Assembly: GCA_043752985.1 (NCBI GenBank)
Contig: JAYUYE010000825.1
Coordinates: 1-33,504 of the forward strand
DNA length: 33,504 nt
DNA from: Myxococcales bacterium
GTDB taxonomy: Bacteria; Myxococcota_A; Polyangia; Haliangiales; Haliangiaceae
Reading direction: 5' to 3'
In this document: positions 460-32,051 of the stretch, in pieces
Numbering within the stretch: the first letter of the stretch is position 1
Layout: each line of letters begins with the position of its first letter
The notes under the pieces: generated by a model
What the model was told of the DNA's origin: nothing
Databases searched by the model: none
The model's input: the letters and a program-made list of their open reading frames with translations, nothing else
Program-made: the position numbers and the translations under genes

Positions 460-3400
460 ATGAGAAATCTGTACGCGTGGCTAGGAGTGGCCATGCTGAT
501 GGTTGCGTTCGCTTGGACTCCGGCGCGCGCGCAGGCGAACGAACCGCTCAAGCCGTACGTCGTGTTCACGCTCGATACATCAGGATCGATGGTGAACACC
601 GGCGCGGGCGAAGGCAACCCGACCGGTGCAGGTCCGCCGAGCTGCGGCGGTGTCGACAACCGACTCAATCACGCGAAGTGCGCGATCAACAAGATCGTCA
701 ACTCGTACGGCGACATGGTGTTCGCACTGGGACGGTTCCGCGAGACTCCGGGCGGAACGTTCGCGACGACGTGCGACGCGAACGGTGACGGTCAAGGTGG
801 CGGAACCGATCAGTGCACGTCGGCTGGCGTGGCGTGCGGTGGCTGCGCATGCAACGGGACGGGCGCGTGCGGAAGCGGCTGCACGACGGATATGCGCGCG
901 GACCACCGGTTCGAGCTGCTGACCGGACTTGTCGACGGCAACAACGAGCTCGCGGGCTATTTGACCGACAGCGCGTGCGGCACGTGCGCGCTCCCTGCGG
1001 TGGGTACCGCGCCGACGCCGGTCAACGAGATCTGGGGCGCAGGTAGCTGGACGCCGCTCGGCGGCACGCTGCTCGGTGCCCACCGCTACTGGCAGGGTCT
1101 CCAGGCGAGCAACGGCACGGTGATCTGGCCGAGCTCGGCATCGCCGACGAGCGGCTTCGATCCGATCCGGTTCGACGTGAAGAAGACAAATTTCCTGCCG
1201 AACGGTTGCAACCCGAACCCGGCGGTCTGCGGAACTGCCGGCAACGCGCCCTGCTGTGCGTCGCAGTGTCGCCCGTACATCACCATTCTCCTCACCGACG
1301 GTGACGAGACATGCGGTGGCAACGCTCCGGCCGCTGCACTCGCTGCGAAGAACAACACGGTCATCGACGGTCGTCAGTACCGGATCGAGACGAAGGTGAT
1401 CGGCATGGGCATCGCGCCCGGCGACGCCGACATCGAAGCGATCGCCGTCGCCGGCAGCCTCAGCCCCGACCCGCTCGGCAACGATGGCTACTACGCGAAC
1501 GACGAGACGTCGCTGCAGCTCGCGATCTCGCAGATCCTCGACGACGCGATCCGGACCGAGGTCTGCAACACGCTCGACGACGATTGCGACTCGATCGCCG
1601 ACGAAGGCTTCGCCACGGGCGGCGCCTGCAACAACGGCCGGCTCGGTCAGTGCCGCGTCGTCGGCACCACGGGCTGCCGCGCGGATGGCGCCGGCACCCA
1701 GTGCAACGCGGGTCGCGAGCCCGAGTGCGACGGCGCCGCCGATGGCACGGCCTGCACGGTCGTCAATGCGACCAGTACGCCGCCTGCTCCGGGCGTCGCG
1801 GGTACCTGCATCTCGAACATCTGCTCGCCGACGGCGGTCGGCACGCCCGGAAACCCCTCCAACGAAGTCCCGCTCGGCTGCAACAACCTCGATGACGACT
1901 GCGACGGCTTGATCGACGAGAACGTCACCGGTTGCGTGTGCATCCCGATGACCGAGATCTGCGACGGCGATGACGACGACTGCGACGGCAACGTCGACGA
2001 GAACACCTCGGTTCCGTGCGCGAACGGCACCTGCACCGGCGTTCGTCCGTGCAACGGAGTCGCTGGTCTCGGCGCCTGCACCGCGGCGCAGCCCGGGCCC
2101 GCCGAGATCTGTAACGGCATCGACGACACCTGCGACGGCATCATCGATGGCTTCCAGGAGTCGTGCTCGAACATGACCTGCCCGGGTGGTGCGTGCACTG
2201 GCGGCGTCGCTGGCGAGCGCACGTGTGTTGGCGGCGCGCGCGCGAACCTGCGCTGCGACACGTTCCCCGCGTTCGACCCGCGCAACAACCCCGGTGGCAA
2301 CCCGACTTCCGCGTGTCAGATCGGCCCGAACGCCGCGGTCTGCGTGTGCAACCCCGGCAACCGGACGTGTCCGGGCAATCCTCCGGGCGTGTTCACCTCG
2401 TGCGTTCAGGAAGTCCAGCCCGGCATCGAGATCTGTAATCTCCTCGATGACGACTGCGACGGCCGCGTCGACGAGACCCCGCCGGTCTCGTGCACCACGG
2501 ATGCGCAGTGCGCGACCACACCGATGACCCCGGACTGCGATGCCGGCATGTGCCGTCCCGCGGACTGCTCGATCAACAGCTGCGGCGGAGAGCTGCTCTG
2601 CACCAACGGCGTGCAGGCTTGCACCGCGGTCAGCGGCGTCGATAACACGTGCAACGGTATCGACGAGGACTGCGACATGTCCGTCGACGAGGGCTGGCGC
2701 TGCACGGATCCGGACGGCGCGGACAACATCCCGAACAACGCGGACGACTGTCCGTGCACCGCGGGTGGTCAGTGCAACGCGCACGAGTCGTGCGAGAACG
2801 GCGGCGTCGTCTGCACCGGTGATCCGGTCGGTCAGGAGAGCTGCAACTGCCTCGACGACAACTGCAACGGCCAGGTCGATGAAGGCGCCTTGTGCGGCGC
2901 CGGCGCGACATGTACGAGCTGCCAGTGCGCGTTCCAGTGCATCCCCGGCGAGTTTGCGTGCCCGATGGGCAAGGCGTGCATCGGCGGCTTCTGCCTCGCG
3001 GACCCGTGCTTCAACTTCACGTGCCCGGTGGTCGCTGGCGACAAGCAGCTCTGCCGTCCGAAGGCCACGAACCCGAGTGACAAGGAGTGCGTCTCGGCGT
3101 GTGCGCCGGGCGTGCACAACTGCAACGCGCCGAACATCTGCTTCCTGCCGACCGGTGAGTGCAAGCCGGATGACTGCACGACGTTCCCGGATCGCTGCGC
3201 GGCCAACCAGAACTGCATCAACGGTACGTGCATCACCAACCCGTGCCAGGGCGTGACGTGCGCCGCGGGTCAGACCTGCGTCGGTGGTCAGTGCTTCGGT
3301 AGCTGCGCCGGCGTGATGTGCGGTGATGGTCAGCGTTGCCGCCTCGGCGTCTGCGAGACCAACCCGTGCAACCCGCCGTGCCCCGCGGGCAAGGTCTGTC

Positions 3401-3732
3401 AGGACGATGATGGCTCGTGCATCCCGAACCCGTGTGGCTTCGTGGTCTGTCCGCAGGGTCAGTACTGCAACGCGAACAACAACGGCATGTGCGAGGACGA
3501 TCCGTGCGAGATCTTCGACATCCAGTGCGCGACGGGGGAGGTCTGCGTCGGTGGCACGTGCTTCGACGAGGATGACTTCAAGCCCGACGCGGGCGAGACG
3601 GTGCTCGTCACCACGGGTGGCGGCGGCGGCTGCAGCACGAACGGGTCACAGACGCCGGGGGCAGGCTCGCTCCTCCTCGGCCTCGGGCTCGTGATGGTGC
3701 TACGCCGCCGGCGCGACGGAGGTGCTTCGTGA
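460..3732 (+). CDS. Secreted vWA (MIDAS) domain protein with Cys/Asp repeat array, Cys-knot stalk and MYXO-CTERM-type C-terminal sorting tail
   Basis: The ORF spans 382-3732. The preferred start ATG 460 gives a classical signal peptide, MRNLYAWLGVAMLMVAFAWTPARAQA. The vWA domain has a full MIDAS set: DTSGS at 574-588, Thr in SWTPLGG at 1051-1053, and TDGDET at 1294-1311. Seven E-[IV]-C-N-x-x-D-D-D-C-D-G-x-x-D-E repeats lie at 1564-2886. These are followed by NPC..C..G..C..G.C repeats and the tail GGGGGCS...SLLLGLGLVMVLRRRR. Confidence 0.85.
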   Translation: MRNLYAWLGVAMLMVAFAWTPARAQANEPLKPYVVFTLDTSGSMVNTGAGEGNPTGAGPPSCGGVDNRLNHAKCAINKIVNSYGDMVFALGRFRETPGGTFATTCDANGDGQGGGTDQCTSAGVACGGCACNGTGACGSGCTTDMRADHRFELLTGLVDGNNELAGYLTDSACGTCALPAVGTAPTPVNEIWGAGSWTPLGGTLLGAHRYWQGLQASNGTVIWPSSASPTSGFDPIRFDVKKTNFLPNGCNPNPAVCGTAGNAPCCASQCRPYITILLTDGDETCGGNAPAAALAAKNNTVIDGRQYRIETKVIGMGIAPGDADIEAIAVAGSLSPDPLGNDGYYANDETSLQLAISQILDDAIRTEVCNTLDDDCDSIADEGFATGGACNNGRLGQCRVVGTTGCRADGAGTQCNAGREPECDGAADGTACTVVNATSTPPAPGVAGTCISNICSPTAVGTPGNPSNEVPLGCNNLDDDCDGLIDENVTGCVCIPMTEICDGDDDDCDGNVDENTSVPCANGTCTGVRPCNGVAGLGACTAAQPGPAEICNGIDDTCDGIIDGFQESCSNMTCPGGACTGGVAGERTCVGGARANLRCDTFPAFDPRNNPGGNPTSACQIGPNAAVCVCNPGNRTCPGNPPGVFTSCVQEVQPGIEICNLLDDDCDGRVDETPPVSCTTDAQCATTPMTPDCDAGMCRPADCSINSCGGELLCTNGVQACTAVSGVDNTCNGIDEDCDMSVDEGWRCTDPDGADNIPNNADDCPCTAGGQCNAHESCENGGVVCTGDPVGQESCNCLDDNCNGQVDEGALCGAGATCTSCQCAFQCIPGEFACPMGKACIGGFCLADPCFNFTCPVVAGDKQLCRPKATNPSDKECVSACAPGVHNCNAPNICFLPTGECKPDDCTTFPDRCAANQNCINGTCITNPCQGVTCAAGQTCVGGQCFGSCAGVMCGDGQRCRLGVCETNPCNPPCPAGKVCQDDDGSCIPNPCGFVVCPQGQYCNANNNGMCEDDPCEIFDIQCATGEVCVGGTCFDEDDFKPDAGETVLVTTGGGGGCSTNGSQTPGAGSLLLGLGLVMVLRRRRDGGAS
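1564..2886 (+). repeat. Array of seven protein-level Cys/Asp repeats (MopE-like / LDL-receptor-A-like acidic cage motif)
   Basis: The seven units are CNTLDDDCDSIADEG, CNNLDDDCDGLIDEN, CDGDDDDCDGNVDEN, CNGIDDTCDGIIDG, CNLLDDDCDGRVDET, CNGIDEDCDMSVDEG and CNCLDDNCNGQVDEG. Cys-rich linkers of variable length separate them. Confidence 0.8.
3616..3729 (+). other. MYXO-CTERM-like sorting signal (Gly-Cys motif, hydrophobic helix, Arg cluster)
   Basis: The last 38 residues are GGGGGCSTNGSQTPGAGSLLLGLGLVMVLRRRRDGGAS. Confidence 0.7.
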
Positions 3733-6700
3733 AGACGGTCCCCCTGCGTGGCCTCGTCGTCGCCGCCTTCGCGGCGAGCGCGGCGACGTCGCTGTCCTGC
3801 GACGTCAACGAGTACTGCATCGGCTGCGCCGTCAACGACGACGGCGGTAACGGCGACGGGAACGATGGTGGCGACGGCGACGCGATCGATGCGCCGGACG
3901 GCGACGCCCCGGACGCATCGACGTGCGTGCCGACCGGCCCCGAGGTCTGCGACAACAAGGACAACGACTGCGACACCAAGACCGACGAAGGCAGCCTGCC
4001 GACGATCGGCGAGGCGTGCTCGACGGCCCCGGCCGTCAACTCCGGTCAGGGCGAGTGCGCGGGCGGCGTCAAGCAGTGCAGCACCGCCGGCACGATCGTG
4101 TGCAGCAAGCCGCCGGCACCGGAGCTGTGCGATCTCAAGGACAACAACTGCAACGGTCTCACCGACGAGGGAGACCCGGGTGGCGGCGCGCTGTGCGGCA
4201 CCAATACGGGTGAGTGCACGGCTGGCGTCAATCGCTGCATCACGGGTGCGATCAGCTGCGTGGGCTCGATCGGCACCGTCGGTGGTCAGCCAGAGGTCTG
4301 CAACAACCGCGATGACGACTGCGACGGCATGTTCGACGAGATGGTCGCGACCGGTGGCCCGTGCACCACGGGCACCAACACCGGCCTCTGTGATCGCGGC
4401 ACGCTGTCGTGCCTCGGTGGTGTCGAGACCTGCGTCGGCCAGATCGGCCCGACGTTCGAGCTGTGCGACGGCTTCGACCAGGACTGCGACGGCAACACCA
4501 CCAACGGCTACGACCTGCTGACGGACGTCCAGAACTGCGGCATGTGCGGCATGGCCTGCAACCTGCCGAACGCGTTCGAGGGCTGTGCCGCCGGCGCCTG
4601 CACGATCCTTGCGTGCGCACCGAACTTCTTCAACAACAACAACGTCGCTTTGGACGGCTGCGAGTTCAACTGCGGTCATCCGTTCCTCGGCGCCGAGATC
4701 TGCAACGGGATCGACGACGACTGCGACGGGCTCGTCGACGGCGCGGATCTGGACATGATCGCGCCGACCGGTCTGTGCGACGGCGATGGCGCGTGCTCGA
4801 CGCTGACCACGCTGTTCTGCGGTCCGCCGCCCAACATGCCGACCGGCACGATCACCTGGCGCTGCGACTACGCGAACCCGAATGTCTCCAAGGACGCGAG
4901 CGGCAACTTGATCCCCGAGACGCGCTGTGACAGCGACATCGTCGCCGGCGTCCAGGCCGATAATGACTGCGACGGCCGGATCGACGAGGCGCAGGAGCCG
5001 AACCTCGGCAACCTGTGCAGCAACGGCATGCAGGGCGTCTGTGGCACCACGGGAACCTTCGCGTGCAACACCACGAACCGCGACCTCGCGGCCGTCTGTA
5101 ACGCACCGGCCGGTGGAGCGATGGCGGCCGAGACCTGCGACGGTCTCAACAACAACTGCAACGGCATCATCGATGACGGTGCCACTCTCGGAAACCTGAC
5201 CGGTCAGGAGTGGGTGACCATTCCGCGCTCGACCGTCCAGATCATGAAGTACGAGGCGTCGCGCCCCGACGCGCTGGTGGCGAACCAGCTCCAGACGCAT
5301 GCGTGCTCGACCGCGGGCCGGTTGCCGTGGACCAACGTCACCTACGGTCAGGCGGAGACTGCCTGCACGTCGGTCAACGCGCGGCTCTGCACCGAAGCGG
5401 AGTGGCAGCAGATGTGTACGCCGTCGACGACGTACCCGCTCGCGGGACCGGCCACGGCGGGCCTCACCGACTTCGTGTTCATCGAGGCCGAGGACGCGTT
5501 CGCCAACACCACGATCGGTGGCAGCAATCAGGCGTGGACCAAGATCGCACCCGCCACGTTCAACGGCGTCACGGCGATGCAAGTGCCTGACAACGGCCTC
5601 GTCATCAGCGCGGCCAATGCCCTCGCGCAGTCGTCGCGACTCGACTACCAGCTCTCGTTGGCAGCGAGTACCAATTACCGGGTGTGGATGCGGATCCGGG
5701 CGCCGGGCGTCAACGCGGATCCGTATCGCGTGCACACGGCGCCGACCGCCACGCTGTCGTCGACCTCGAACGCGGCGACCCAGGTCGGCGATCTCGTGAT
5801 CGTCACCACGTGGACGCGCGGCACGGCCGGCATCCCGACCCACACGCTACAGGCGGGCTTCACGCAGATCCTCACCCAGTCGCTCGACGACGGAAACCTC
5901 GACGGTCGGCTCTCGGTGGCCTACCGGGTGGCGACCGTGGCGGGCGCGCAGCCGTACGCGGCCTACACCGCGACCGGCGGCACGAGCTACAGCGGGCTGA
6001 CCGTCCTCAAGGTCGGCAACTTCAGCGTCGCGACGATCCTGCAGGCGAGCACGAGCAACACCGGCACCGGCACTCCGAACCCGCCGACTGCGGGAACGGT
6101 CTCCGCGCCCTCGGTGGTCCTCGCGATCGGTGCGTGGCACCTCGGTGGCAACACCGTGAGCGTCACGCCGCCGACCGGCTACACCGAGCTCGGTGAGGTG
6201 GCGGGCTCCAACGTCGGCGAGCTCAGCGTCGCAACGCGGATCGTCGGGCTCGGTGGCACCGCAGATCCGGGTGCATTCGTCGACGACGTGACACCGAACG
6301 GCACTGCGGCGGCGACGATCTCGATCGCGCTCTCGGCAGGCGGCGCGAATAACTCGCTGTGGGTCGGCCTCAACGCGGGGACCACGGCGGGCGCTGCCAA
6401 TGCGGGCGATGTGGTCGTCAACAGCGTGGACCAGTGGGTGTGGGTCGTCAGCCCGCAGCTCACCAGCTCTGCCGCGGGCGGCACGCACACGTTCAGCATC
6501 TTCACGCGCGTCGACGGCGTGGTCGTCGATACTATCGCGGTGAGCGGGCAGGCCACGACGGGCCCGACGTTCGACAACTCGTGGGCGTATCAGAACAACC
6601 CGCGAACCGCGCAGCCGCAGGTCTGCAACGGTGATGATTACGACACCGACGGCAACGCGGCGAACGGCGATCAGGATGCGATCCTGACGACCGGCAATCC

Positions 6701-6920
6701 GCTACTCGGCATGTGCTTCGCGAACCAGGCGCTGACGAACGACGCGTTCGACATGAGTGGCAACGTCAAGGAGTGGACGCAGGCGCGCACCTCGGGCCAG
6801 AACCCGTTGCGCGGCGGTGCCTCCAACAACGAGGTGGCGGGTCTGACGTGCGGCTTGAATTTCACGCTCGCCGACGATCAGTTCTTCTTCCCGAACGCCG
6901 GCTTCCGTTGCTGTAGATAG
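3729..6920 (+). CDS. Cys/Asp-repeat lipoprotein with split SUMF1/FGE-sulfatase-type (C-type-lectin fold) domain carrying a CBM-like insert
   Basis: GTG 3729 overlaps the upstream TGA (GTGA, 3729-3732). The N-terminus MKTVPLRGLVVAAFAASAATSLSC is a signal peptide with a lipobox-like SLSC. Seven Cys/Asp repeats lie at 3948-5180. The FGE-type domain is in two halves: GQEWVTIPRSTVQIMKYEASRPDA...LPWTNVTYGQAETAC...RLCTEAEWQQMC (about 5202-5430) and DMSGNVKEWTQ...LRGGASNN...AGFRCCR (about 6600-6917). Confidence 0.8.
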   Translation: MKTVPLRGLVVAAFAASAATSLSCDVNEYCIGCAVNDDGGNGDGNDGGDGDAIDAPDGDAPDASTCVPTGPEVCDNKDNDCDTKTDEGSLPTIGEACSTAPAVNSGQGECAGGVKQCSTAGTIVCSKPPAPELCDLKDNNCNGLTDEGDPGGGALCGTNTGECTAGVNRCITGAISCVGSIGTVGGQPEVCNNRDDDCDGMFDEMVATGGPCTTGTNTGLCDRGTLSCLGGVETCVGQIGPTFELCDGFDQDCDGNTTNGYDLLTDVQNCGMCGMACNLPNAFEGCAAGACTILACAPNFFNNNNVALDGCEFNCGHPFLGAEICNGIDDDCDGLVDGADLDMIAPTGLCDGDGACSTLTTLFCGPPPNMPTGTITWRCDYANPNVSKDASGNLIPETRCDSDIVAGVQADNDCDGRIDEAQEPNLGNLCSNGMQGVCGTTGTFACNTTNRDLAAVCNAPAGGAMAAETCDGLNNNCNGIIDDGATLGNLTGQEWVTIPRSTVQIMKYEASRPDALVANQLQTHACSTAGRLPWTNVTYGQAETACTSVNARLCTEAEWQQMCTPSTTYPLAGPATAGLTDFVFIEAEDAFANTTIGGSNQAWTKIAPATFNGVTAMQVPDNGLVISAANALAQSSRLDYQLSLAASTNYRVWMRIRAPGVNADPYRVHTAPTATLSSTSNAATQVGDLVIVTTWTRGTAGIPTHTLQAGFTQILTQSLDDGNLDGRLSVAYRVATVAGAQPYAAYTATGGTSYSGLTVLKVGNFSVATILQASTSNTGTGTPNPPTAGTVSAPSVVLAIGAWHLGGNTVSVTPPTGYTELGEVAGSNVGELSVATRIVGLGGTADPGAFVDDVTPNGTAAATISIALSAGGANNSLWVGLNAGTTAGAANAGDVVVNSVDQWVWVVSPQLTSSAAGGTHTFSIFTRVDGVVVDTIAVSGQATTGPTFDNSWAYQNNPRTAQPQVCNGDDYDTDGNAANGDQDAILTTGNPLLGMCFANQALTNDAFDMSGNVKEWTQARTSGQNPLRGGASNNEVAGLTCGLNFTLADDQFFFPNAGFRCCR
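3948..5180 (+). repeat. Second array of seven Cys/Asp repeats (same family as 1564-2886)
   Basis: The units are CDNKDNDCDTKTDEG, CDLKDNNCNGLTDEG, CNNRDDDCDGMFDE, CDGFDQDCDGN, CNGIDDDCDGLVDG, an atypical DNDCDGRIDE, and CDGLNNNCNGIIDDG. Most are preceded by E-[IVL]. Confidence 0.75.
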
Positions 6921-6923: not shown

Positions 6924-7490
6924 GTGGATCTCGGTCACGAGCGTTGCACCCGCTGCCTGTTCCAGCAGCGGGCGTGTCTGTGCGCGCAGATCCCGCGGAT
7001 CGAGACCGGCACCCGGATCGTCATTGTCCGCCACCATCTCGAGAAGTGGCGGTCGTCGAATTCGGGACGGCTCGCGCACCTCGCGCTCGTCAACAGCGAG
7101 CTCGTCGATCATGGTGCCCCGGGCGGACCGACCGTCCTGCCGCCTCTCGATGGCGCGTGGCTGGTGTTTCCCGAGGGCGAGCCGCGGCAGGTAGGCCCGG
7201 AGCCGCCGCCACGTCAGCTCGTGTTCCTCGATGCCACCTGGTCGCAGGCGCGACGAATGTTCCGCAAGATCTCGGCGCTGCGCGGGCTGCCGATCCTGCG
7301 GCTCCCTGACGTGCCGATGCGGGCGGCACGGTTCCGCGAATCGCCGGGCGAGGGTCGGGTATCGACGCTCGAGGCGATCGCGGGAGCGCTCCGCCTCATC
7401 GAGGGGGAGGCCCCAGCGGCCCCCCTGGAGAGCCTGTTCGAACTTGCGGTATCCCGGGCAGTTGCGACGGGCCGGTCGCTGGATTCCTGA
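6924..7490 (+). CDS. DTW-domain protein (tRNA-uridine aminocarboxypropyltransferase family, TapT/YfiP-like)
   Basis: The GTG start lies 3 nt after the upstream stop. The protein has an N-terminal C-x2-C...C-x-C cluster (CTRCLFQQRACLC), IVIVRHHLE, NSGRL, the diagnostic LDATW motif (FLDATWSQARRM) and VSTLEAIA. Confidence 0.75.
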   Translation: MDLGHERCTRCLFQQRACLCAQIPRIETGTRIVIVRHHLEKWRSSNSGRLAHLALVNSELVDHGAPGGPTVLPPLDGAWLVFPEGEPRQVGPEPPPRQLVFLDATWSQARRMFRKISALRGLPILRLPDVPMRAARFRESPGEGRVSTLEAIAGALRLIEGEAPAAPLESLFELAVSRAVATGRSLDS

Positions 7491-7517
7491 CGGCCATTCC
7501 ACTAACCTTCAGAGGCA

Positions 7518-9167
7518 GTGGGTGCGTCGCGTCAAGCTCGCACCGGGATCCCGATCTCGGTCAAGCTCATCCTTGCTACCTCGATCGTTGTCGCGGCAGC
7601 AGTGGGCACCGCCACGTGGTTTGCGCAGAAGTCGGTCAACGACTTGACCGAGACATCGATCGCCCATCGCCGCGAGACCGGCGAGCGCTCGATCGTTCGC
7701 GAGTCCGAGCTGGTGGTCAAGGCGGTTGCCACCGCCGTCGCCTTTCCGCTGTCGACCGGCACCCTCGCCGACATTCCGGCCCTCCTCGACAGCACGTTCC
7801 AGGAGGACAAGAAGACCGGTGAGAACCGGGTCAAGTGGCTCGTCGTCACGGATGCCCAGGGCGTGGTTGTTGGCTCGACCTCGGGCGCGCCGCCGAAGGA
7901 CAAGCTCGACGAGCTCGAGCGCAGGCTGGTCGACGGCATCAAGAACGGCGACGTCGTTCACGCTCGCGCCGGCGACGCGACGGACTGGGTCTATGGCGCG
8001 CCCGCGAAGCTCGCCACGGCTCAGGTCGGCTCCCTGCGAATCGGCGTGTCGACCTCTGGCCTCGACAAGGAGCTCCAGGCGTCGCTGTCGCAGGCCGAGG
8101 ATCGCGCGCGTGCGGCGCGCAACCGGATGCTGCTGGTCTCGCTCGTCGTGCTCGCGATCGGCGTCGTGCTCGCCGCGCTCCAGGGCGTCCGGCTCGCGCA
8201 CCCGATCAAGCAGCTGACCTACCAGGCGGAGCGGATTGCCGCCGGGGACCTCAAGGGTCGCGTCCCCGAGGATCGTGGCGATGAGCTCGGCGTGCTCGCG
8301 CGCGCGTTCAACAAGATGGCCGACGAGATTCGCCACCTGCTCGTCGAGCAGGTGCAGAAGGCATCGCTCGAGAAGGAGATGTCGCTCGCGCGCCAGGTCC
8401 AGCAGGCGATGCTGCCACCCGACACGCTCGACATGCACGGCAACCTCAAGGTCGTCGGCTACTGCATGCCGGCGTCGAGCTGCGGCGGCGACTGGTGGAC
8501 GTACATCAAGCTGTCGAACGGGCGGATGCTGCTCGTTGTCGGCGATGCGACAGGCCACGGCATCCACTCCGCGATGATCGCGGCGACCGCGCGGGGTGCC
8601 GTCGAGGCGCTGTCAGGGATCGACGAGCGGCTGCTGACGCCCGAGCAGGTGCTCAAGGCGATCGACTCCGCGATCCGTCAGGTTGGCGAGCACAACGTGC
8701 TGATGACCGCGTTCGCCGCGGTGTTCGACTCGACAAACGGCATCCTCCACTACGCGAACGCCGGGCAGAACTTCCCGTACGTGATGAAGCTCGGCGTGAC
8801 GCGGCTGCTCGAGGACGCGAGCATCATTGCAGCGAGCGGTAATCCGCTCGGCGACCGCAACATCGAGGTCGAGATCCGGCGCGGCTCGCTGCAGCTGCGG
8901 CCGGGCGATCTGTTCGTGTGCTTCACCGACGGCCTCGTCGAGCGTGCGAACCCGGTCGGCAAGCTGTTCGGCGATCGCCGCCTGCGCGGCGCGCTGACCG
9001 GGCAACCGCTGCCCGATGGTCCGGCGCTGGTCCAGCTGCGCGATCGCATCGTGGCCACGCTCGAGACCTACGCCGAGGGCGCTCAGGCCGAGGACGACAT
9101 CACGTTCGTGCTGTGTCAGTTCGATCCGCCGGCGCACCGGCAGAGCGTAGGTCTCGGAGCGGCATGA
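7518..9167 (+). CDS. Membrane sensor phosphatase: TM, periplasmic Cache-like domain, TM, HAMP, PP2C/SpoIIE (RsbU-like) phosphatase
   Basis: TM1 is VKLILATSIVVAAAVGTATWF. A periplasmic segment of roughly 165 aa follows, then TM2 (MLLVSLVVLAIGVVLAALQGV). The HAMP region reads HPIKQLTYQAERIAAGDLKGRVPEDRGDELGVLARAFNKMADEI. PP2C metal-ligand motifs are present: GGDWWTY, VVGDATGHGIHSAM, FTDGLVE and EDDITFV. Confidence 0.85.
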   Translation: MGASRQARTGIPISVKLILATSIVVAAAVGTATWFAQKSVNDLTETSIAHRRETGERSIVRESELVVKAVATAVAFPLSTGTLADIPALLDSTFQEDKKTGENRVKWLVVTDAQGVVVGSTSGAPPKDKLDELERRLVDGIKNGDVVHARAGDATDWVYGAPAKLATAQVGSLRIGVSTSGLDKELQASLSQAEDRARAARNRMLLVSLVVLAIGVVLAALQGVRLAHPIKQLTYQAERIAAGDLKGRVPEDRGDELGVLARAFNKMADEIRHLLVEQVQKASLEKEMSLARQVQQAMLPPDTLDMHGNLKVVGYCMPASSCGGDWWTYIKLSNGRMLLVVGDATGHGIHSAMIAATARGAVEALSGIDERLLTPEQVLKAIDSAIRQVGEHNVLMTAFAAVFDSTNGILHYANAGQNFPYVMKLGVTRLLEDASIIAASGNPLGDRNIEVEIRRGSLQLRPGDLFVCFTDGLVERANPVGKLFGDRRLRGALTGQPLPDGPALVQLRDRIVATLETYAEGAQAEDDITFVLCQFDPPAHRQSVGLGAA

Positions 9168-11248
9168 CGGCGAGGACCCGACGAGCGCAGGTGCTCGCGG
9201 TGGTGGTTGTGGCAACGCTTGGATCCGGTAGCGCGCAGGCGCAGGGGCCGAGCGTCGATGTTGCTGACCTCCCGCCGCTGCCCGCGACCGAGGATGAGGT
9301 CTCGAGCTCCGCCACGCTGCTCGCTGCGACCTCGGCCGAGGAAGATGTCGTGGTCGGCGCTGCGAAGCGCGAGCAGACGCTTGGCAACGTGGCCTCGGCA
9401 GTGACGGTCGTGTCGGCCGATCGGATCCGGCGGTTTGGCTACCGGACGGTCAGCGAGGCGATCGCCGGCGTCGCGGGCGTGTTCATCACGGACACGCGGC
9501 TGACCCAGCAGGTCGGAATTCGCGGCCTCCAGATCCCCGGCGGATTCAACAGCCGCATCCTGGTGCTCGTCGACGGCGCGACGCTCAACGAGGCGTGGGG
9601 CGCCTTCGCGGGGGTCGGGTACGATGGCCCCGTTTCGATCGACGACATCGCGCGCATCGAGGTGATCCGTGGTCCGGTCGGCGCGGTCTACGGGACCAAC
9701 GCGTTCTTCGCGATCATCAACATCGTCACCCGCGGTGCGGCCGAGGGTCAGCGCGCGTGGGGCAGGGTCGCGCTCAACTCGATCAACGGCGTGGTCACGA
9801 CCGCCGGATTCGCGGCCGGCGGTGTCAACCATCAGGTGCGTGGCTCGTTGCTCGTGATGGATCGATTCGGCGAGAGCTTGAACGTGAGCGAGATCAGCCC
9901 GGATCCGTTGACCTCCGACGGCGCACGCACGCTGATCGGCGCGGTCGTCGGCCAGTCCGGTGGCAGCTTCGCGCAGCTCCGGGTGTATCGGGCGCGGCGC
10001 GATTCGCCGTTCGCGGCGTACGACAGCGATCCGGCCCTCGATCCCGCGTACTCGCTCTACAACACGCAAGCACTGCTCGAAGGTGGACACACGCGGGAGG
10101 TGTCGAAGCGGTTGAGCATGTCCGTGCGCGGCTACGGCACGGCCTACCGGTACTACGACGAGATCAACTACGTGACCGACGACCAGTTTGTCGACTACGG
10201 CGATGCGCTCACCGTCGGTGCAGAAGTTCGCGGCCGCTACGAGCTCGTGCCCGAGAAGCTCGGCCTGACGGCAGGCGTCGAGGCGAACTACAACAAGACC
10301 GAGAGCCGTTCGTACGCGATCGGGAGCGAGGCGGACGGCGTCAAGATCCCACTCGACTTCGACACCGAGGGTGTCTACAGCGAGCTCGACGGCCAACCGC
10401 TGCCGTGGCTCGGCTTCACCGGCGGCGTGCGCTTCGATCGCAACTCCGTGCTCGAGAGCCGGCTGTCACCGCGCGCGGCATTGTTCATTGCCGATCCGGA
10501 GAACTACGGGCTCAAGCTCCTCTACGCCGAGGGCTTCCGCAGCCCGAGTGCATTCGAGTACAAGTTCGCCGACGGTGTCGACTTCTCGGCGAACCCGAAC
10601 ATCCGCGCCGAAACGATCCGCAGCTACGAGGCCGTCGTGTGGGCACGGCCGGCACCTGGGCTGTCGACGCGCGTCTCGGCGTTCTACTGGAATGCGCGCG
10701 ATGTCGTCGAGCAGCGGCCGGATCCAGGTGACACGACGCTTCTGCAGTTCGCGAATGTCGGCCGCTACATCACGCGCGGCGTCGAGGTCGAGGCGAGCTA
10801 CCGCACGGGCGAAGGCTGGTACGCTTTCGGTGGCGGCACGGTCGCGCAGGTCGGCAGCGGCGAGACCGGCACCGCGATCTCGTACGGCGATGTGGTCAAC
10901 GCACCAAAGGTCACGGCGACGGGCGGCGTTTCGACCCCGAAGCTCTATGGCTACGCGCACGTCTCCGCGGACGCGCAGTTCGTCAGCCTCCGGCGGACGC
11001 GGCCCGACGAGGACGGGAATGCATCGCCGAGCTCGCCGGCGTGGACCGGCATCAATGCAACGATCTACGTGCCGAACCTGCGCGGCTTCGATCTGACCGC
11101 CGGCGTGCGCAACATCCTCGGCACCCGCGACCTGCAACCCGCGCCCGGTGACTATGATCGCTTCCCCGCCATGCAGCCGACGGTGATCGTTCCGCGGATC
11201 CCCGCCGAAGGCAGGGAGGTCTATGTCAAGATTGGCTACACCTACTAG
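9164..11248 (+). CDS. TonB-dependent receptor (paralog 1)
   Basis: ATG 9164 overlaps the upstream TGA (ATGA, 9164-9167). The signal peptide is MTARTRRAQVLAVVVVATLGSGSAQAQ. A TonB-box-like EEDVVVGA is followed by plug motifs (IEVIRGPVGAVYGTNAFFAIINIVTR) and a long beta-barrel region. The protein ends in an aromatic OMP terminus, VYVKIGYTY. Confidence 0.9.
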   Translation: MTARTRRAQVLAVVVVATLGSGSAQAQGPSVDVADLPPLPATEDEVSSSATLLAATSAEEDVVVGAAKREQTLGNVASAVTVVSADRIRRFGYRTVSEAIAGVAGVFITDTRLTQQVGIRGLQIPGGFNSRILVLVDGATLNEAWGAFAGVGYDGPVSIDDIARIEVIRGPVGAVYGTNAFFAIINIVTRGAAEGQRAWGRVALNSINGVVTTAGFAAGGVNHQVRGSLLVMDRFGESLNVSEISPDPLTSDGARTLIGAVVGQSGGSFAQLRVYRARRDSPFAAYDSDPALDPAYSLYNTQALLEGGHTREVSKRLSMSVRGYGTAYRYYDEINYVTDDQFVDYGDALTVGAEVRGRYELVPEKLGLTAGVEANYNKTESRSYAIGSEADGVKIPLDFDTEGVYSELDGQPLPWLGFTGGVRFDRNSVLESRLSPRAALFIADPENYGLKLLYAEGFRSPSAFEYKFADGVDFSANPNIRAETIRSYEAVVWARPAPGLSTRVSAFYWNARDVVEQRPDPGDTTLLQFANVGRYITRGVEVEASYRTGEGWYAFGGGTVAQVGSGETGTAISYGDVVNAPKVTATGGVSTPKLYGYAHVSADAQFVSLRRTRPDEDGNASPSSPAWTGINATIYVPNLRGFDLTAGVRNILGTRDLQPAPGDYDRFPAMQPTVIVPRIPAEGREVYVKIGYTY

Positions 11249-13319
11249 GCTCGCGCTGCTCGGTCTGCTCGTCGCGGCACCGGTAGCAGCGGGGCCTGCG
11301 GTCGACGTCGCCGACCTGCCACCGCTGCCGACGGGCGGCGATGACATGTCGAGCTCTGCGACGGTGCTCGCTGCCTCCTCGGCCGAGGAAGACGTCGTCG
11401 TCGGTGCCGCGAAGCGCGAGCAGTCGCTCGGCAACGTGGCATCGGCGGTCACCGTGATCACGGCCGATCGGATCCGCCGGTTCGGCTACCGCACCGTGGG
11501 CGAAGCGGTCGCGGGCGTCGCGGGCGCATACCTCGTCGACAACCGGCTGAGCTACTCGATCGGCATCCGCGGGCTCCAGATCCCCGGCGACTTCAACTCG
11601 CGTCTGCTCGTGCTGATCGACGGCGCGAGCGTCAACGAGGGCTGGGGGGCGTTCGCCGGCCTCGGCTTCGACGCGCTCGTGGGGGTCGACGACATCGCAC
11701 GCATCGAGGTGATCCGCGGCCCGGTGTCGTCGGTGTACGGCACCAATGCGTTCTTCGGGATCATCAACATCGTCACCCGCGGTGCGTCCGAGCTGCCGCG
11801 GGCGTGGGCGCGTGCTGCGGTCAATTCGATCCAGGGACCGACGACTAGCGCCGGCTTCGCGAGTGGCGGGATCGATCGGCAGCTGCGCGGCTCGATTCAC
11901 TTCGTGAACCGGATCGGCGAGACGCTGAACGCCCCGATCCCGGATGGCGACGGGGTCGATGCCGATGCATCGCGCGCGTTCGGCGGTGGGATCGTCGGCG
12001 CGTGGGGCGGCAGCTTTGCGCAGGTCCGCGGCTCGAAGTGGAGCCGCGAGTCGCCGTTTGCGCCGTATGACGTCAATCCTACTCGCGCGCCGTACGAGCA
12101 GTTCGATACCCACCTGCTCGCCGAAGGCGGCCACACGCGAGATGTATCGAAGACGCTCACGCTCGCCGGGCGGGCGTACGTGAACATCTACAACTTCAGC
12201 GATCGGTCGCCGCCGTACGATCCGATCGACCAGCCCACGTCACTCGACACCACGGGTAGCGCGCGAACCTTCGGCTCGGAGCTTCGCGGCCGCCAGCAGC
12301 TCACACAGGAGGTCGGGGTCACCGCCGGCGTCGAAGCGAGCTACAACCGAACCGAGAGCACGGCGAAGTATCGCGGCGACGATCCCGCGAACACGATCGT
12401 CGTCCCCGCCAACTTTCTCCTCGCCGGCGTCTACGCCGAGGCCGAAGCGCAGCCGGTGCGCTGGCTCGGGTTCACCGGCGGCCTGCGCTTCGATCACTAC
12501 GACGAGCTCGTCGCTGCGGATCCGCAGTCGCGCTCGAGGTTGTCGCCGCGCGCCGCGCTGTTCGTGTCAGAGCCGCAGAAGTATGGCCTCAAGCTGCTCT
12601 ACGCCGAGGGGTTCCGCAACCCGAGTGCGTTCGAGGGCAAGTTCGAGGACGGCAACGACTTCAGCGCGAACCCGAACATCGAGGCCGAGACCATCCGCAG
12701 CTTCGAGGCCGTGGTGTGGGCAAAGCCCACCGCCGGAGTGTCGACGCGCCTGTCGGGGTGGTACTGGGACGCGCGCGGCATCGTCGAGCAGCAACCCGAT
12801 CCGCTCGACCCCGCGCTGCTCCAGTTCCAGAACGCGTCCCGCTATGTCTCGGCCGGCCTCGAAGCCGAGGCGTCGTACCGCACGAGCAAGGGCTGGTACG
12901 CATTCGGTGGCGCCGCGTACTCGCGCGTCGGTACCGAGGACGACGCGGGCCAGCTGGTCTATGGCGCGGTCCCCAACGCGCCCGCGATCACCGCGAGTGG
13001 TGGGCTATCGACGCCGCTGGTGTTCGGCTACGCGCACGTCTCGACCGACCTTTATGTGATTGGCACGCGTCCGACCCGGCCCGACGCGGCCGGCAATCCG
13101 TCGCCCGAGTCGCCGGCCTTCGTTGGCTGGAACTGGACGGTCTACGTCCCGAACCTGCGCGGCTTCGATCTCACCGCAGGTGTCCGCAACGTGATCGGCA
13201 AGCGGGAGCAAGTGCCCGCACCCGGCGACTACGACCGCAGTCTTCCCGATGTTCTCACCGTGCCCCGCGTGCCCGGCGAAGGGAGAGAGCTCTATGTCAA
13301 GCTCGGCTATTCCTACTAG
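11223..13319 (+). CDS. TonB-dependent receptor (paralog 2, tandem duplicate)
   Basis: ATG 11223 lies 26 nt inside paralog 1 and is preceded by GGGAGG (11214-11219). The signal peptide is MSRLATPTRLALLGLLVAAPVAAG. The plug is nearly identical to that of paralog 1, and the C-terminus is LYVKLGYSY. Confidence 0.9.
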   Translation: MSRLATPTRLALLGLLVAAPVAAGPAVDVADLPPLPTGGDDMSSSATVLAASSAEEDVVVGAAKREQSLGNVASAVTVITADRIRRFGYRTVGEAVAGVAGAYLVDNRLSYSIGIRGLQIPGDFNSRLLVLIDGASVNEGWGAFAGLGFDALVGVDDIARIEVIRGPVSSVYGTNAFFGIINIVTRGASELPRAWARAAVNSIQGPTTSAGFASGGIDRQLRGSIHFVNRIGETLNAPIPDGDGVDADASRAFGGGIVGAWGGSFAQVRGSKWSRESPFAPYDVNPTRAPYEQFDTHLLAEGGHTRDVSKTLTLAGRAYVNIYNFSDRSPPYDPIDQPTSLDTTGSARTFGSELRGRQQLTQEVGVTAGVEASYNRTESTAKYRGDDPANTIVVPANFLLAGVYAEAEAQPVRWLGFTGGLRFDHYDELVAADPQSRSRLSPRAALFVSEPQKYGLKLLYAEGFRNPSAFEGKFEDGNDFSANPNIEAETIRSFEAVVWAKPTAGVSTRLSGWYWDARGIVEQQPDPLDPALLQFQNASRYVSAGLEAEASYRTSKGWYAFGGAAYSRVGTEDDAGQLVYGAVPNAPAITASGGLSTPLVFGYAHVSTDLYVIGTRPTRPDAAGNPSPESPAFVGWNWTVYVPNLRGFDLTAGVRNVIGKREQVPAPGDYDRSLPDVLTVPRVPGEGRELYVKLGYSY

Positions 13320-15711
13320 GCGTACCACGGCGGTCATCATGCTCGCGCTGATCGTGAGCGCGGTGCCCGCGTTCGCACAGCGTCCCAATCAAGGCGAGGA
13401 CGAGAGCGCGGCGCTCGTGGCCGAGGGACGCGCAGCACTCAAGCAGAACAAGCTCGACCAGGCGGCCAACGCGCTCGACCAGGCGATCGCACTGAACCCG
13501 CGCCGCGTCGAGGCGTACGTCCTGCGCTCGGCAGTCCACGCCGCAAAGAAGCAGTACAAGGAAGGCATCGACCTGATGCGGCGCGCCCAGGCGCTGTCGC
13601 CCGGCGACGAAGAGGTCCTGACAGCGCTCGGTTCGCAGCTCGTCCTCTCGGGCGACGTCGCCGGCGGCATCCCGATTCTCCAGCAGGTCACCAAGAAGAA
13701 CCCCGTGCGCTACGATGCCCAGCTCCTCCTCGGTCATCACTGGCACACGACGGGGAAGTGGCCCGACGCGATCACCTCGTTCGAGGCGTACTTCAAGTAC
13801 CGGCCCGAGGTGCTCGCAAAAGAAGATGCACGGCATCGCGTCGATCTCGCGGACGCGTACCTGCGCTATCGCCAGCCAGCGAAGGCGCTGTCGTTGTTTC
13901 GGCAGGCGTCAGACGCACGCACGACCGATCTCCGCGCGCGGATCGGCGTTGCATGGGCGACCGCAGCCGTCGATTGCCGCAAGGCACGCCCGCTGCTCGA
14001 GGAGCTCGAACCGGTCGCCGACACGCACCCCGAGGTGTGGCTCGTCGACGGACTGTGCGCGCTCGCTCTCGGTGACTCCGGCGGTGCGCTCGCACTCGGT
14101 CGCAAGTATCTCGACAAAGCACCGCAGGCGAGTGCCGCCGGGCACGCGCTCGTCGGAGAAGCGCACGCCGCGCGTGGCAATCTGAGCGAGGCGCGCAAGG
14201 AGCTCGAGACCGCTCGGCAGCTCGAGCCGAATCGGCGGCGGTGGGCAGTGCGGTTCGCGGTGGTCCTGCGCCGCAGTGCCGATCCGAAGAGTGCGCTCGC
14301 GACGCTCGAATCAATCGGCCCTCCGGCCACGCCGAGCATCGATCCCGACTGGTGGAGCGAGCTGGGCGAGGCGCTGATCGCCGCGGGTGATCCGCAGGCT
14401 GCGGCAACGCGCCTGGTCGCGGTCCTTCCCGAGCTGCCGGGCGACGTCGCCGTGCGGACGGTCGCGGGTGCCGCGCAGCTCGCGACGGGGCAGGTGGAGG
14501 CGGCGATCAAGACGCTCGGCGAGGCCGAGGCGATCATCAGCCTGCCGCGCTCGCGCAAGCTCTTGAGCGTTGCGCTGACCGCCGTTGCCGTGAGCAAGCT
14601 GGCGGAGGGCGACGCTGCGACCGCCGAGCCCATGCTCACGCGCGCCGATCAGCTCGACGGCAATCCGCTGGTCTGGCGCAACCTCGGCATCGCGCGCCTC
14701 GCGCTCAACAAGTCCTCCGAGGCGGTCACCGTCCTTGACCGTGCGATCAAGGCTGAAGGCTCGGGCATCACGCTGATGCTCGCCGCGCGCGCGCACTCGG
14801 CGGCGGGTGATCTCACCGGTGCACGCACGCTGTACGAGCGAGCGATGGCAACCGAGAAGGACAACATCGTCGAGGTCGCGCTCGACTGGGCCGCGACCGA
14901 GGTAGGCAGCGGCGATCCGATGTTCGCGATCGCGGCGCTCGACAAGACCTCCGCTGCAGCGAAATCAGGACCGCTCGCGGGACGGCACAAGGCCGCACTC
15001 GCGATCGCGCGGCACGCCGCCGGGCTGATCGCGCTGCGCGCGGGCAACGGTGCGAAGGCCGTAGAGTACCTCACCGCGTCGGTCAAGGCGGCGCCCGAGC
15101 TGTCCACGAAGTGCGACCTCGCTCTCGCGGCCGTTGTCGTCGGAGATGCGGGGCCCGCGCTCGCAGCGCTGCGTGCGGTCAGCGGGCAGAGCTGCCCGTT
15201 CGCACCGCCCGCAGATACCCAGGCGGCGCCGATCTTGATCGCGTTCACCGAGGGTCGAACCGCCAAGCGCGCCGGCAAGGCGCTCGACAAGCTGACGTCG
15301 CTCGCGGGAAAGTCGAGTGGCCCGGCGGCGGTCCTTCTCAACACGGCGATCCGCGTCGTTGCCCTCGAGGCGGCGCAGGACGCCTATCGCGGTGGCCAAC
15401 TCGCGAGGGCTCGCAAGTACCTCAACTCCGCGAAGGCCGTGAATTCGCGAGTCGGTGTCGACGAGCTCGCGCACAACCTGGCGGCGCTCGACCTCGCCGA
15501 CGGCAACGTCGATGCCGCGATCAATGTGCTCGAGCGCGTCTCGAGCAAGTTGCCCGAGGCGCTCGTCAATCTCGGCATCGCCTACGAGCGCAAGGGCGAC
15601 CCGGTCAAGGCGCTCGACGCATGGCGGCGCGCGCGCAAGGCCGGTGCGCGGTTCCCACAGCTGACCGAGTGGATCGAATCAAAAGAGCGGATCTACGGAG
15701 GTGCGCAGTGA
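13294..15711 (+). CDS. Periplasmic tetratricopeptide-repeat (TPR) protein, about 805 aa
   Basis: ATG 13294 lies 26 nt inside paralog 2 and is preceded by GGGAGAG (13281-13287). The signal peptide is MSSSAIPTRRTTAVIMLALIVSAVPAFAQ. The protein is Ala/Leu-rich with repeated TPR-like helical pairs (for example AANALDQAIALNPRRVEAYVLRSAVHAAKKQYKEGIDLMRRAQALSPGD) and ends in a TPR, NLGIAYERKGDPVKALDAWRRARKAG. Confidence 0.8.
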   Translation: MSSSAIPTRRTTAVIMLALIVSAVPAFAQRPNQGEDESAALVAEGRAALKQNKLDQAANALDQAIALNPRRVEAYVLRSAVHAAKKQYKEGIDLMRRAQALSPGDEEVLTALGSQLVLSGDVAGGIPILQQVTKKNPVRYDAQLLLGHHWHTTGKWPDAITSFEAYFKYRPEVLAKEDARHRVDLADAYLRYRQPAKALSLFRQASDARTTDLRARIGVAWATAAVDCRKARPLLEELEPVADTHPEVWLVDGLCALALGDSGGALALGRKYLDKAPQASAAGHALVGEAHAARGNLSEARKELETARQLEPNRRRWAVRFAVVLRRSADPKSALATLESIGPPATPSIDPDWWSELGEALIAAGDPQAAATRLVAVLPELPGDVAVRTVAGAAQLATGQVEAAIKTLGEAEAIISLPRSRKLLSVALTAVAVSKLAEGDAATAEPMLTRADQLDGNPLVWRNLGIARLALNKSSEAVTVLDRAIKAEGSGITLMLAARAHSAAGDLTGARTLYERAMATEKDNIVEVALDWAATEVGSGDPMFAIAALDKTSAAAKSGPLAGRHKAALAIARHAAGLIALRAGNGAKAVEYLTASVKAAPELSTKCDLALAAVVVGDAGPALAALRAVSGQSCPFAPPADTQAAPILIAFTEGRTAKRAGKALDKLTSLAGKSSGPAAVLLNTAIRVVALEAAQDAYRGGQLARARKYLNSAKAVNSRVGVDELAHNLAALDLADGNVDAAINVLERVSSKLPEALVNLGIAYERKGDPVKALDAWRRARKAGARFPQLTEWIESKERIYGGAQ

Positions 15712-29410: not shown

Positions 29411-30589
29411 CTAGCACCGCTCGATGATCGCGGCGCTGCCGAGGCCTGCCGCACCGCTGACGGCGATCGCCGCGTAGCGCGCACCGCGGCGCTCGAGCTC
29501 GTCGAGCGCATCGACCACGAGGACCGCGCCGGTCGCGCCGTACGCATGACCGAGTGCGATCGTTCCACCGTTCGGATTGAGGCGGTCGTGGTCGAGATCG
29601 AGGTCGCGCATGAGGCGGACGCACAGTGCAGCGAACGCCTCCGCGAACTCGATGATCGCAAGGTCGGCGGCGCGCAGCCCGGCCTTCGCGAGCGCGCGCT
29701 CGAGGGCGGTCTGCCCGGCGGTCAGCATCGTCACCGGATCTCCGGCGCAGGTCGCGGTCGCGAGGATCCGCGCGCGGGGCGCGAGGCCCGTGCGGTCGGC
29801 CGCCGCTCGATCACCGAGGACAACGAGCGCGGCAGCATCGGCGAGGCTCGGCGACGAGCCGCGGGTGTGGATGTGGCGGATCGCTGCGAGCTGCGGGTGG
29901 CGGGTGAGCGCGATCGAGTCCTGGCCGAGCTCGCCGAACAGCGGCGGCAGCACTGCGAGCTCGTTTGGGCTCGGCGCGTAGGCAACGTTCTCGTCGTGAT
30001 CGAGCACGATGCGATCACCGGCACGGTACGGGATGATCGAGCGCCGGCGCTGCTCGGCATGTGCGCGCCGCGCCTTGTCGCGAGTCGCAGCCGCGTAGCG
30101 ATCACACGCATCGCGATCGATGTGCTCGAGCGTGGCGACGAGATCGGCGGCGACGCCCATGTGGATGGTGCCGGCCGCGGCCATGACGTCAGGATCCGCA
30201 TACAGTGGGCCGTGATCGGAGAACGTCGGCACCCGCGATACGCTCTCCACGCCGCCCGCGATGATCAACGTTGCGTCCCCGGCGCGTACGCGCGCAGCGC
30301 CGAGATTGATCGCATCGAGGCCCGACGCGCAGAACCGATTGATCGTGACGCCCGGAATCGCGACATCCCAGCCCGCGAGCAGCGTCGCCGACCGCGCGAG
30401 GTTCGCACCTTGATCGCCGGTCTGTGTCGCACAGCCGAGGATCACGTCGTCGGGGAGTGCGCCCGCGAGTCGAGAACCGAGCACATCGAGCAAGCTGCCG
30501 ACGAGACGCACCGGCGGAACGGCGTGGAGCGCGCCCTTCGGTGAGCCTTTGCCGCGTGGCGTCCGGATACCCGCGAGGACGAACGTCAC
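29411..30589 (-). CDS. Thiolase (acetyl-CoA C-acyltransferase family) with atypical catalytic motifs
   Basis: GTG 30589-30587 overlaps the upstream TGA (GTGA); ATG 30604 is an alternative start. The N-terminus is VLAGIRTPRGKG. The nucleophile motif NRFCASGLDAI and the His motif NPNGGTIALGHAYGATG are present. NEAF is replaced by AEAF, and CIGGG is replaced by VSGAAG. Confidence 0.85.
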   Translation of the reverse strand: MTFVLAGIRTPRGKGSPKGALHAVPPVRLVGSLLDVLGSRLAGALPDDVILGCATQTGDQGANLARSATLLAGWDVAIPGVTINRFCASGLDAINLGAARVRAGDATLIIAGGVESVSRVPTFSDHGPLYADPDVMAAAGTIHMGVAADLVATLEHIDRDACDRYAAATRDKARRAHAEQRRRSIIPYRAGDRIVLDHDENVAYAPSPNELAVLPPLFGELGQDSIALTRHPQLAAIRHIHTRGSSPSLADAAALVVLGDRAAADRTGLAPRARILATATCAGDPVTMLTAGQTALERALAKAGLRAADLAIIEFAEAFAALCVRLMRDLDLDHDRLNPNGGTIALGHAYGATGAVLVVDALDELERRGARYAAIAVSGAAGLGSAAIIERC

Positions 30590-32037: not shown

Positions 32038-32051
32038 GACGGAACGCTCGC

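Follow-up and report, generated by a model that had tools for sequence, protein, structure and literature searches.

A conserved, overlapping gene pair of Kofleriaceae and Haliangiales encodes two stalked, cysteine-rich proteins with modular tips, a candidate two-protein adhesin or receptor

Layout of the locus and domain content of the two proteins

MYXO-CTERM proteins are thought to govern the contact of myxobacteria with kin, prey and surfaces and, to our knowledge, TraA is the only one of them that is understood in mechanism. Here we describe two overlapping genes on contig JAYUYE010000825.1 of a Myxococcales bacterium, which encode a secreted protein with a von Willebrand factor A (vWA) head (protein 1) and a lipoprotein-type partner whose split head resembles the formylglycine-generating enzyme (FGE; protein 2), each on a stalk of seven MopE-type repeats. 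The window, which is the whole stretch of DNA that was analyzed, measures 33,504 nucleotides (nt) and all window coordinates refer to it (Table 1); its G+C content is 65-71% throughout. We found no description of this pair in the literature, and both proteins are labeled 'MopE-related' or hypothetical in the databases. The locus is real and conserved, and represents a variant of the myxobacterial stalked surface-receptor theme that had not been described before; it is distinguished by a coupled second stalked protein, by nested domains and by independently swapped tips, one of them with a phage-shared module.

The initial annotation had described two open reading frames (ORFs) joined by a four-nucleotide start/stop overlap, each coding for an anchor, a stalk with seven repeats and a head. 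Both ORFs and their overlap are read in the sequence, and the layout of the two proteins is real. ORF1 is open from position 382, and we set its start at the methionine at 460 (MRNLYAWLG...) according to the N-termini of its homologs. The 4-nt overlap, together with the GGAGG motif in the last codons of gene 1, points to translational coupling of the two genes.

The head of protein 1 had been annotated as a vWA domain with a MIDAS (a metal ion-dependent adhesion site), an assignment that Pfam does not return: the window head gave no VWA match, even when searched alone at E <= 10, and the head of one relative scored 21.8 bits against a gathering score of 23.8. We therefore relied on fold and motif conservation rather than on hidden Markov models, and on this basis the head is predicted to be a vWA domain, as proposed. 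The AlphaFold2 model built from 23 homologs has a predicted local distance difference test score (pLDDT) of 70.5 and a predicted template modeling score (pTM) of 0.76. When it was compared to the Protein Data Bank (PDB) with Foldseek, the top 50 matches were all vWA domains (best E 2.4e-5, BatB; TM 0.6-0.7 normalized to the target), among them TFIIH p44/Ssl1, the integrin alphaM I-domain, the pilus tip adhesins PitA and SpaC, and complement C2a/factor B. Sequence searches of the PDB with proteins 1 and 2 and with the head profile returned nothing useful. In the alignment of 56 heads, the MIDAS residues D39, S41, S43, T198 and D280 are 98-100% conserved, and substitutions and indels cluster in four Cys-rich loops, the same parts in which the confidence of the model is low. 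Integrin alpha I-domains and the Gram-positive adhesins PitA and SpaC likewise carry a MIDAS vWA domain at the end of a long stalk and bind their ligands in a metal-dependent manner, but they have no detectable sequence relationship with the head (approximately 10-15% identity) and differ in anchoring and stalk chemistry.

A vWA adhesin is also known in Myxococcus xanthus, where CglB is a Cys-rich surface protein with disulfide-stapled loops and a complete MIDAS that is functionally required (PMC9946355). NF033757 (gliding_CglB) is the sole NCBIfam family to which the head family has repeated matches (in 8 of 23 members, with E 1.2e-5 at best), and remote relatives match it too, a faint sequence likeness that concerns part of the family. 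The pair could accordingly be the counterpart of CglB in gliding motility, that is a substratum adhesin whose vWA head couples the motility machine to the surface and whose protein 2 masks or presents the head. We consider this quite unlikely. The scores of the head family are approximately 25-30 bits against a cutoff of 200 bits, and the window head has no match at E <= 1. CglB is 416 amino acids (aa) long, N-terminally lipidated and devoid of stalk, MYXO-CTERM and coupled partner, whereas the signal peptide of protein 1 is of type I and its anchor is C-terminal. In addition, no glt-type genes are present in the 33-kb window, and the replacement of head cassettes (see below) is unexpected for a generic substratum adhesin.

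The repeats of both stalks match PF11617 well above the cutoff of 27 bits (E 2.8e-14 and 53.5 bits in protein 1, E 1.9e-22 and 79.6 bits in protein 2). Seven MopE cores are found by regular expression in protein 1 (aa 369, 474, 501, 551, 659, 731 and 795) and six in protein 2, where a seventh, degenerate copy (ADNDCDGRIDE) was recognized by eye, in agreement with the number initially annotated. The PF11617 motif resembles Ca2+-binding disulfide modules. Between stalk and anchor, the membrane-proximal region of protein 1 is its best-conserved part among close relatives (90-95%). The annotated MYXO-CTERM tail is borne out by TIGR03901, whose score for the whole protein is just under the cutoff of 20 bits (19.8) and reaches 27 bits when only the 60-aa tail is scanned; the same model matches 23 of 31 ortholog tails, and the tripartite tail is present in 65 of 69 loci.

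Table 1. Features of the gene pair, in coordinates of the window
Feature	Position	Strand	Residues and description
Gene 1	460-3732	+	1090-aa secreted vWA / MopE-repeat / MYXO-CTERM protein, 10% Cys; TGA at 3730-3732
Type I signal peptide, protein 1	460-537	+	aa 1-26, ...ARAQA|NE; from sequence and aligned homolog N-termini
vWA head (predicted)	547-1545	+	aa 30-362; AlphaFold2 model, Foldseek, conservation over 56 heads
MIDAS residues	D39 (574-576), S41, S43, T198 (1051-1053), D280 (1297-1299)	+	
Cys-rich variable loops of vWA head			aa 101-140, 171-190, 221-230, 251-270
Head cassette	601-1500	+	56-62% nt identity to L012
Stalk, protein 1	1555-2895	+	aa 366-812; seven PF11617 MopE-type repeats
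Membrane-proximal Cys-rich region, protein 1	2896-3618	+	aa 813-1053; short CxxGxxCxxGxC units
MYXO-CTERM sorting signal	3619-3729	+	GGGGGC, hydrophobic helix, RRRR
Coupling signal (putative)	3718-3732	+	GGAGG (3718-3722) in last codons of gene 1, then GTGA start/stop overlap (3729-3732)
Gene 2	3729-6920	+	1063-aa lipoprotein-type MopE-repeat protein, split FGE-like head; GTG start at 3729, stop at 6918-6920
Signal peptide and lipobox-like motif, protein 2	3729-3800	+	N-terminus ...ATSLSC24
Stalk, protein 2	3939-5183	+	aa 71-485; seven MopE-type repeats, preceded by acidic Gly/Asp linker (aa 36-70)
FGE/SUMF-like domain, N-terminal half	5184-5438	+	aa 486-570; PF03781
CBM-like beta-sandwich, first half	5439-5708	+	aa 571-660; relatives match PF17829 (GH115_C)
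Innermost nested module	5709-6365	+	aa 661-879; only in some alleles
CBM-like beta-sandwich, second half	6366-6680	+	aa 880-984
FGE/SUMF-like domain, C-terminal half	6681-6917	+	aa 985-1063, ending ...GFRCCR

Protein 2 had been annotated as a lipoprotein with an FGE-like head, and both features are recovered. Its N-terminus fits the lipobox, as assessed with a PROSITE-type pattern, and the fit is strict in 44 of 67 orthologs; in all real orthologs the lipobox Cys is preceded by S, G or A. The head matches PF03781 with 26 bits in place (cutoff 23.3), and the score rises to 29.7 when the insert that splits the domain is spliced out in silico and to 45.9 in an insert-free relative. The domain is shortened: of the 255 profile positions, the window protein matches 84-122 and the insert-free relative, to which the inactive paralog SUMF2 (1y4j) is the closest solved sequence, matches 85-191. 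Where FGE has the catalytic pair that binds Cu(I) (CxxxxC, following RGGS), a single Cys follows RGG in ...RGGASNNEVAGLTCGLNF..., at a site where the alignment is weak and the model confidence low. The FGE-like domain is probably non-catalytic, and may instead bind glycans.

These data bear on an enzymatic or metal-scavenging role of the pair, in which the FGE domain would be an oxidase, whether formylglycine-generating or of another kind, or copper for two TonB-dependent receptors encoded downstream (9164-13319) would be caught by the MopE repeats. The Pfam names FGE-sulfatase and Cu-binding_MopE and the presence of the receptors suggest such a role. Against the enzyme speak the truncation relative to the Pfam model, the likeness to SUMF2 and the lack of a visible Cys pair; against copper uptake, the resemblance of the repeats to Ca2+-binding modules, the DTW and SpoIIE genes that lie between the pair and the receptors, and the several loci without these neighbors. 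Both versions are very unlikely, and we rejected them.

The FGE (C-type-lectin-like) fold without the catalytic Cys pair is also found in pFGE/SUMF2 and in PorK/GldK, which are lipoproteins too and belong to the type IX secretion ring. Their existence shows that FGE-like lipoproteins can be structural, and the default orientation of a lipoprotein is periplasmic. The pair might hence be an envelope structure, with protein 2 as an inner-leaflet outer-membrane lipoprotein that docks or chaperones protein 1 and has no binding role of its own. The similarity on which this could build is not significant: the insert-free FGE domain of a distant relative (L061) matches PorK/GldK very weakly (E 1.9), and one of 23 head-family members matches TIGR03525 (GldK) with E 0.15. 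The domain described here is, moreover, shortened, mounted on a MopE stalk and split by an insert. A periplasmic scaffold is also hard to square with a stalked protein of approximately 1000 aa whose variable tip, including a phage tail-type module, is typical of exposed binding surfaces, and we regard this role as distinctly improbable.

The insert that interrupts the FGE-like domain is 414 aa long (aa 571-984) and is itself nested. The family consensus of this region is a beta-sandwich of approximately 150 aa, and several relatives match PF17829 (GH115_C). No Pfam match was obtained for the insert of the window protein, which we call carbohydrate-binding module (CBM)-like on the grounds of these relatives and of the consensus. 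In the window protein the sandwich is split in turn by an inner module of approximately 220 aa (aa 661-879), modeled by AlphaFold2 with pLDDT above 90. When the three-domain model of protein 2 was compared to the PDB with Foldseek, only low-probability jelly-roll matches were returned. Nothing in the locus is more informative than the nested CBM-like/phage-tail-like insert and the way in which both tips are replaced like cassettes, and the initial annotation had missed both.

Two short segments close to the predicted membrane anchors are highly conserved. In protein 2, the family-wide residues C-(N/D)-V-N-(D/E)-Y-C-(L/I)-x-C, starting from the lipobox Cys (window 3798-3830 and orthologs), are among the best conserved of the protein, as are V-T-T-G-G-G-G-G-C before the anchor of protein 1. 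These membrane-proximal segments may be the place where the two proteins meet, or sorting signals.

Conservation of the pair as a unit

The head belongs to a small family, with 24 matches in 5.8 billion sequences and 117 clusters (50% identity) in 1.84 billion representatives. It is found in 60 species-level genomes, nearly all of them Kofleriaceae, Haliangiales or unclassified metagenome-assembled genomes (MAGs) of Myxococcota/Deltaproteobacteria, and the ten head-family clusters that we looked up held no isolate and no functional name. The initial annotation had made its proposal dependent on synteny of the two genes in relatives, and this synteny is found. The pair is kept as a unit in about 70 loci of Kofleriaceae/Haliangiales (loci are hereafter given as L and proteins as P, with a number): practically all loci of sufficient length have a protein 2 homolog approximately 4 kb downstream of the head, the two genes adjoin and share a [G/A]TGA overlap in 67 of 69 loci, and GGAGG stands just upstream in most. 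In most loci the repeats of protein 1 number seven, and the regular expression reads 7/7 in 30 of 43.

The most distant relatives, L061 and L062 (32% head identity), retain the 4-nt overlap, and in both the FGE domain of the partner is insert-free. Here the vWA domain is not N-terminal (L061 6983-12667, L062 8756-12715) and is preceded by another Cys-rich repeat array (C..AE.C.G....CPAD), which measures more than 900 aa in L061 and approximately 400 aa in the available part of L062.

In a few loci the whole pair occurs twice with different tips, either in tandem (L016 3787-15633 and L022 1-6483) or divergently (L015 145-13114); in L016, the phage-type inner module is confined to the first copy. 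In two long-read MAG assemblies (L001 and L002/L013), the homologous genes are split into several short called ORFs, probably through frameshift errors in high-GC repeats. Because of such splits, full-length members of both families are under-represented in protein databases. On three contigs, a 373-aa ORF (P0016; L079 6001-7122, L080 168-1289) fuses the N-terminal half of the vWA domain to the C-terminal end of the CBM/FGE part of protein 2. It occupies the syntenic place, with an acyl-CoA dehydrogenase upstream and DTW downstream, and looks like a deletion remnant of the pair.

Cassette replacement of the two tips

The window, L003 and L012 are close (87-93% identity in SpoIIE and 90-95% in the protein 1 tail), yet divergent tips occur among them. 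Between L012 and the window, the nt identity is 85-90% over the flank upstream (1-600) and 78-92% over gene 1 outside the head cassette, and drops within the cassette (Table 1). The L012 head is 57% identical to that of the window, and its nearest relatives are heads from distant lineages. In L003, it is the insert of protein 2 that differs, with 52% identity and 55-64% nt identity over positions 6001-6600. The inner module is missing from metagenome contigs whose tails are 85-89% identical, and it is 71% identical in one further contig. The head type and the insert type assort independently. In the divergent segments the rate of synonymous substitution (dS) is 1.0, compared to 0.3-0.65 elsewhere, and the ratio of the non-synonymous rate to it (dN/dS) is 0.36-0.49, compared to 0.10-0.24. 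Since dS is raised along with dN, these segments look like old or imported alleles and not merely like the outcome of faster protein evolution. Among close relatives, the vWA head and the insert of protein 2 have been swapped independently of each other for divergent cassettes.

Variable heads recall TraA/TraB of M. xanthus, and the initial annotation had likened the layout of protein 1 to that of TraA. The analogy of layout stands: TraA is secreted and combines a variable N-terminal head with a Cys-rich stalk and a MYXO-CTERM anchor, and the gene of its partner overlaps the stop codon (PMC6372800; PMC12288465). Head types are discrete in both systems, with signs of horizontal exchange, and here they do not track the phylogeny of the neighboring genes; the raised dS is what old alleles would give. 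It is conceivable that the pair serves kin or self recognition in the same manner, with homotypic binding of heads between neighboring cells licensing cell-cell adhesion or outer-membrane exchange and head cassettes acting as recognition groups. We hold this to be unlikely. The rest of the likeness does not extend to the hallmarks of TraA/TraB, as the head is vWA and has no PA14 Pfam match, the repeats are PF11617, the invariant SCNCCP of TraA (PMC6372800) is absent (the nearest string being SCNCLD), and protein 2 is a stalked lipoprotein with only MopE and FGE matches and none to OmpA or a beta-barrel. The pair also differs in bearing a second variable tip, on the partner. The usual ligand of a MIDAS is acidic and heterologous and not the MIDAS itself, and the polymorphism is seen only between species-level genomes. 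Finally, Haliangium ochraceum, which belongs to the related family and is in culture, is among the strains of the TraA survey (PMC6372800), so that a true traAB may already exist in the group.

An inner module shared with phage tail-type proteins

The inner module of protein 2 is 42-50% identical to the N-terminal modules of P0094, P0097, P0100, P0106, P0111 and P0113, which are proteins from other phyla. Compared to a library of viral structures (BFVD), its model matches predictions of mycobacteriophage minor tail proteins with probability 1.0 over approximately 220 aligned columns. We looked up the phage or prophage context of two module-bearing proteins: one lies beside very large tail-like genes and those of an integrase and a cell-wall hydrolase; for the other, the adjoining genes code for terminase, portal and capsid proteins. 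A search of PHROGs with the vWA head and with the insert of protein 2 gave no match. The module is absent in L063/L065/L066, L007, L010 and others. The module of the window resembles proteins from phage or prophage contexts in sequence and phage minor tail proteins in predicted fold, but differs in being a nested insert in a cellular lipoprotein. In the phage/prophage proteins P0094 (L076 10001-12574) and P0111 (L078 10001-12118), the module is N-terminal and is followed by a long repetitive, fiber-like sequence. The presence of a module that is approximately 50% identical in a cellular surface protein and in phage tail-type proteins bears on the trade of receptor-binding parts between phages and their hosts.

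A candidate two-protein adhesin or receptor

The reading that we favor, with modest confidence, is that the pair forms a translationally coupled, surface-displayed adhesin or receptor of two proteins with modular tips. It builds on what the sequences establish: domain content and sorting signals, the coupling of the two genes, their conservation as a unit and the replacement of cassettes. From these we infer that both proteins are surface exposed and associate, that binding depends on metal and what the ligands are.

Protein 1 would be exported by the Sec pathway and then retained in the inner membrane through its MYXO-CTERM helix. The outcome would be a C-terminal lipid anchor, a disulfide-rich stalk, probably stabilized by Ca2+, and a distal vWA head on the cell surface; the pathway has been shown for TraA in Myxococcus (PMC11980579; PMC12288465). 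At the tip, the invariant metal site of the MIDAS would bind an acidic group of the ligand, and the variable, Cys-bridged loops would set the specificity. Through the 4-nt overlap, protein 2 would be produced in step with protein 1, and so tight a coupling suggests joint assembly. Its topology would mirror that of protein 1, with an N-terminal lipid anchor, a seven-repeat stalk and a C-terminal, non-catalytic head of C-type-lectin-like fold, which would display the nested beta-sandwich and, in some alleles, the phage-tail-type binding module.

An invariant MIDAS set in variable loops, combined with a lectin-fold head that has exchangeable modules, argues for two tips directed to external targets. 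The two tips may be ligand-binding cassettes that are exchanged independently by recombination; given this independence, their ligands are probably external, such as glycans or proteins of other cells, of prey or of the substratum, rather than each other. In a stronger form, to which we give a low probability, the pair would be an unrecognized polymorphic recognition system of Kofleriaceae, in which the MIDAS tip and the lectin/phage-tail-type tip jointly define the cells, prey and surfaces that are bound. If true, this would be a second and mechanistically different solution to the problem that TraA solves, partly built from a receptor-binding module traded with phages.

Several observations weigh against a coupled, surface-displayed adhesin or receptor. 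The vWA domain is unrecognized by Pfam and 82 residues of the head model lie below pLDDT 50; the model of the FGE domain is also poor in its C-terminal half. An outward rather than periplasmic orientation of protein 2 and its contact with protein 1 we only infer, and 23 of the 67 ortholog N-termini are off the strict lipobox pattern (those of L001 and L075 are spurious short junction ORFs, and the others are polar at -3 or -4). The stalks, initially described as matching, agree in repeat number only, as protein 1 adds a 240-aa Cys-rich segment between stalk and anchor. Since P0016 looks like a deletion remnant, the pair would be dispensable in at least one lineage. The synteny could partly reflect inheritance rather than selection, as most loci belong to one family, and the evidence for cassettes comes from a few species-level comparisons of MAGs and metagenome contigs, not from population samples.

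With its coupled partner, its invariant metal site and tips swapped on near-identical backbones, the locus adds a second clearly delimited case to that of TraA, and the swapping of the tips leads to direct hypotheses on the determinants of specificity. The practical value is limited at present because the carriers are all uncultured.

Neighboring genes

Positions 1-366 hold the 3' end of an acyl-CoA-dehydrogenase-like gene, identified by synteny with the gene called upstream of the L001 homolog. A scan for promoters and terminators in the window gave nothing above chance. Downstream, a DTW-domain gene starts at 6924, 4 nt past the end of gene 2, and next comes the gene of a HAMP-SpoIIE (PP2C) phosphatase (6924-9167 for both, +). 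Most but not all loci of the family retain this order, and the adjacency probably reflects inherited synteny and no role in the device. A signaling triad of the pair with DTW and HAMP-SpoIIE (vWA/PP2C-type) was set aside, as these neighbors are absent in eight loci in which the pair and its overlap persist (L009, L019, L027, L041, L043, L046, L061 and L062).

The first of the two tandem TonB-dependent receptor ORFs overlaps the end of the HAMP-SpoIIE gene, and the receptors are followed by a gene for an 820-aa TPR protein (window 9164-13319 and 13249-15711, +). Further downstream, a 698-aa protein encoded on the opposite strand (30589-32682, -) has a strong RPE65/carotenoid oxygenase domain (E 3.9e-112), preceded by an N-terminal extension of approximately 240 aa without match. 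Between these genes lies that of a 982-aa protein (20943-23891, +) with weak matches to M36 (fungalysin) metallopeptidase, to the DUF4215 Cys-repeat and to choice-of-anchor J, which may be another myxosortase-dependent surface protease.

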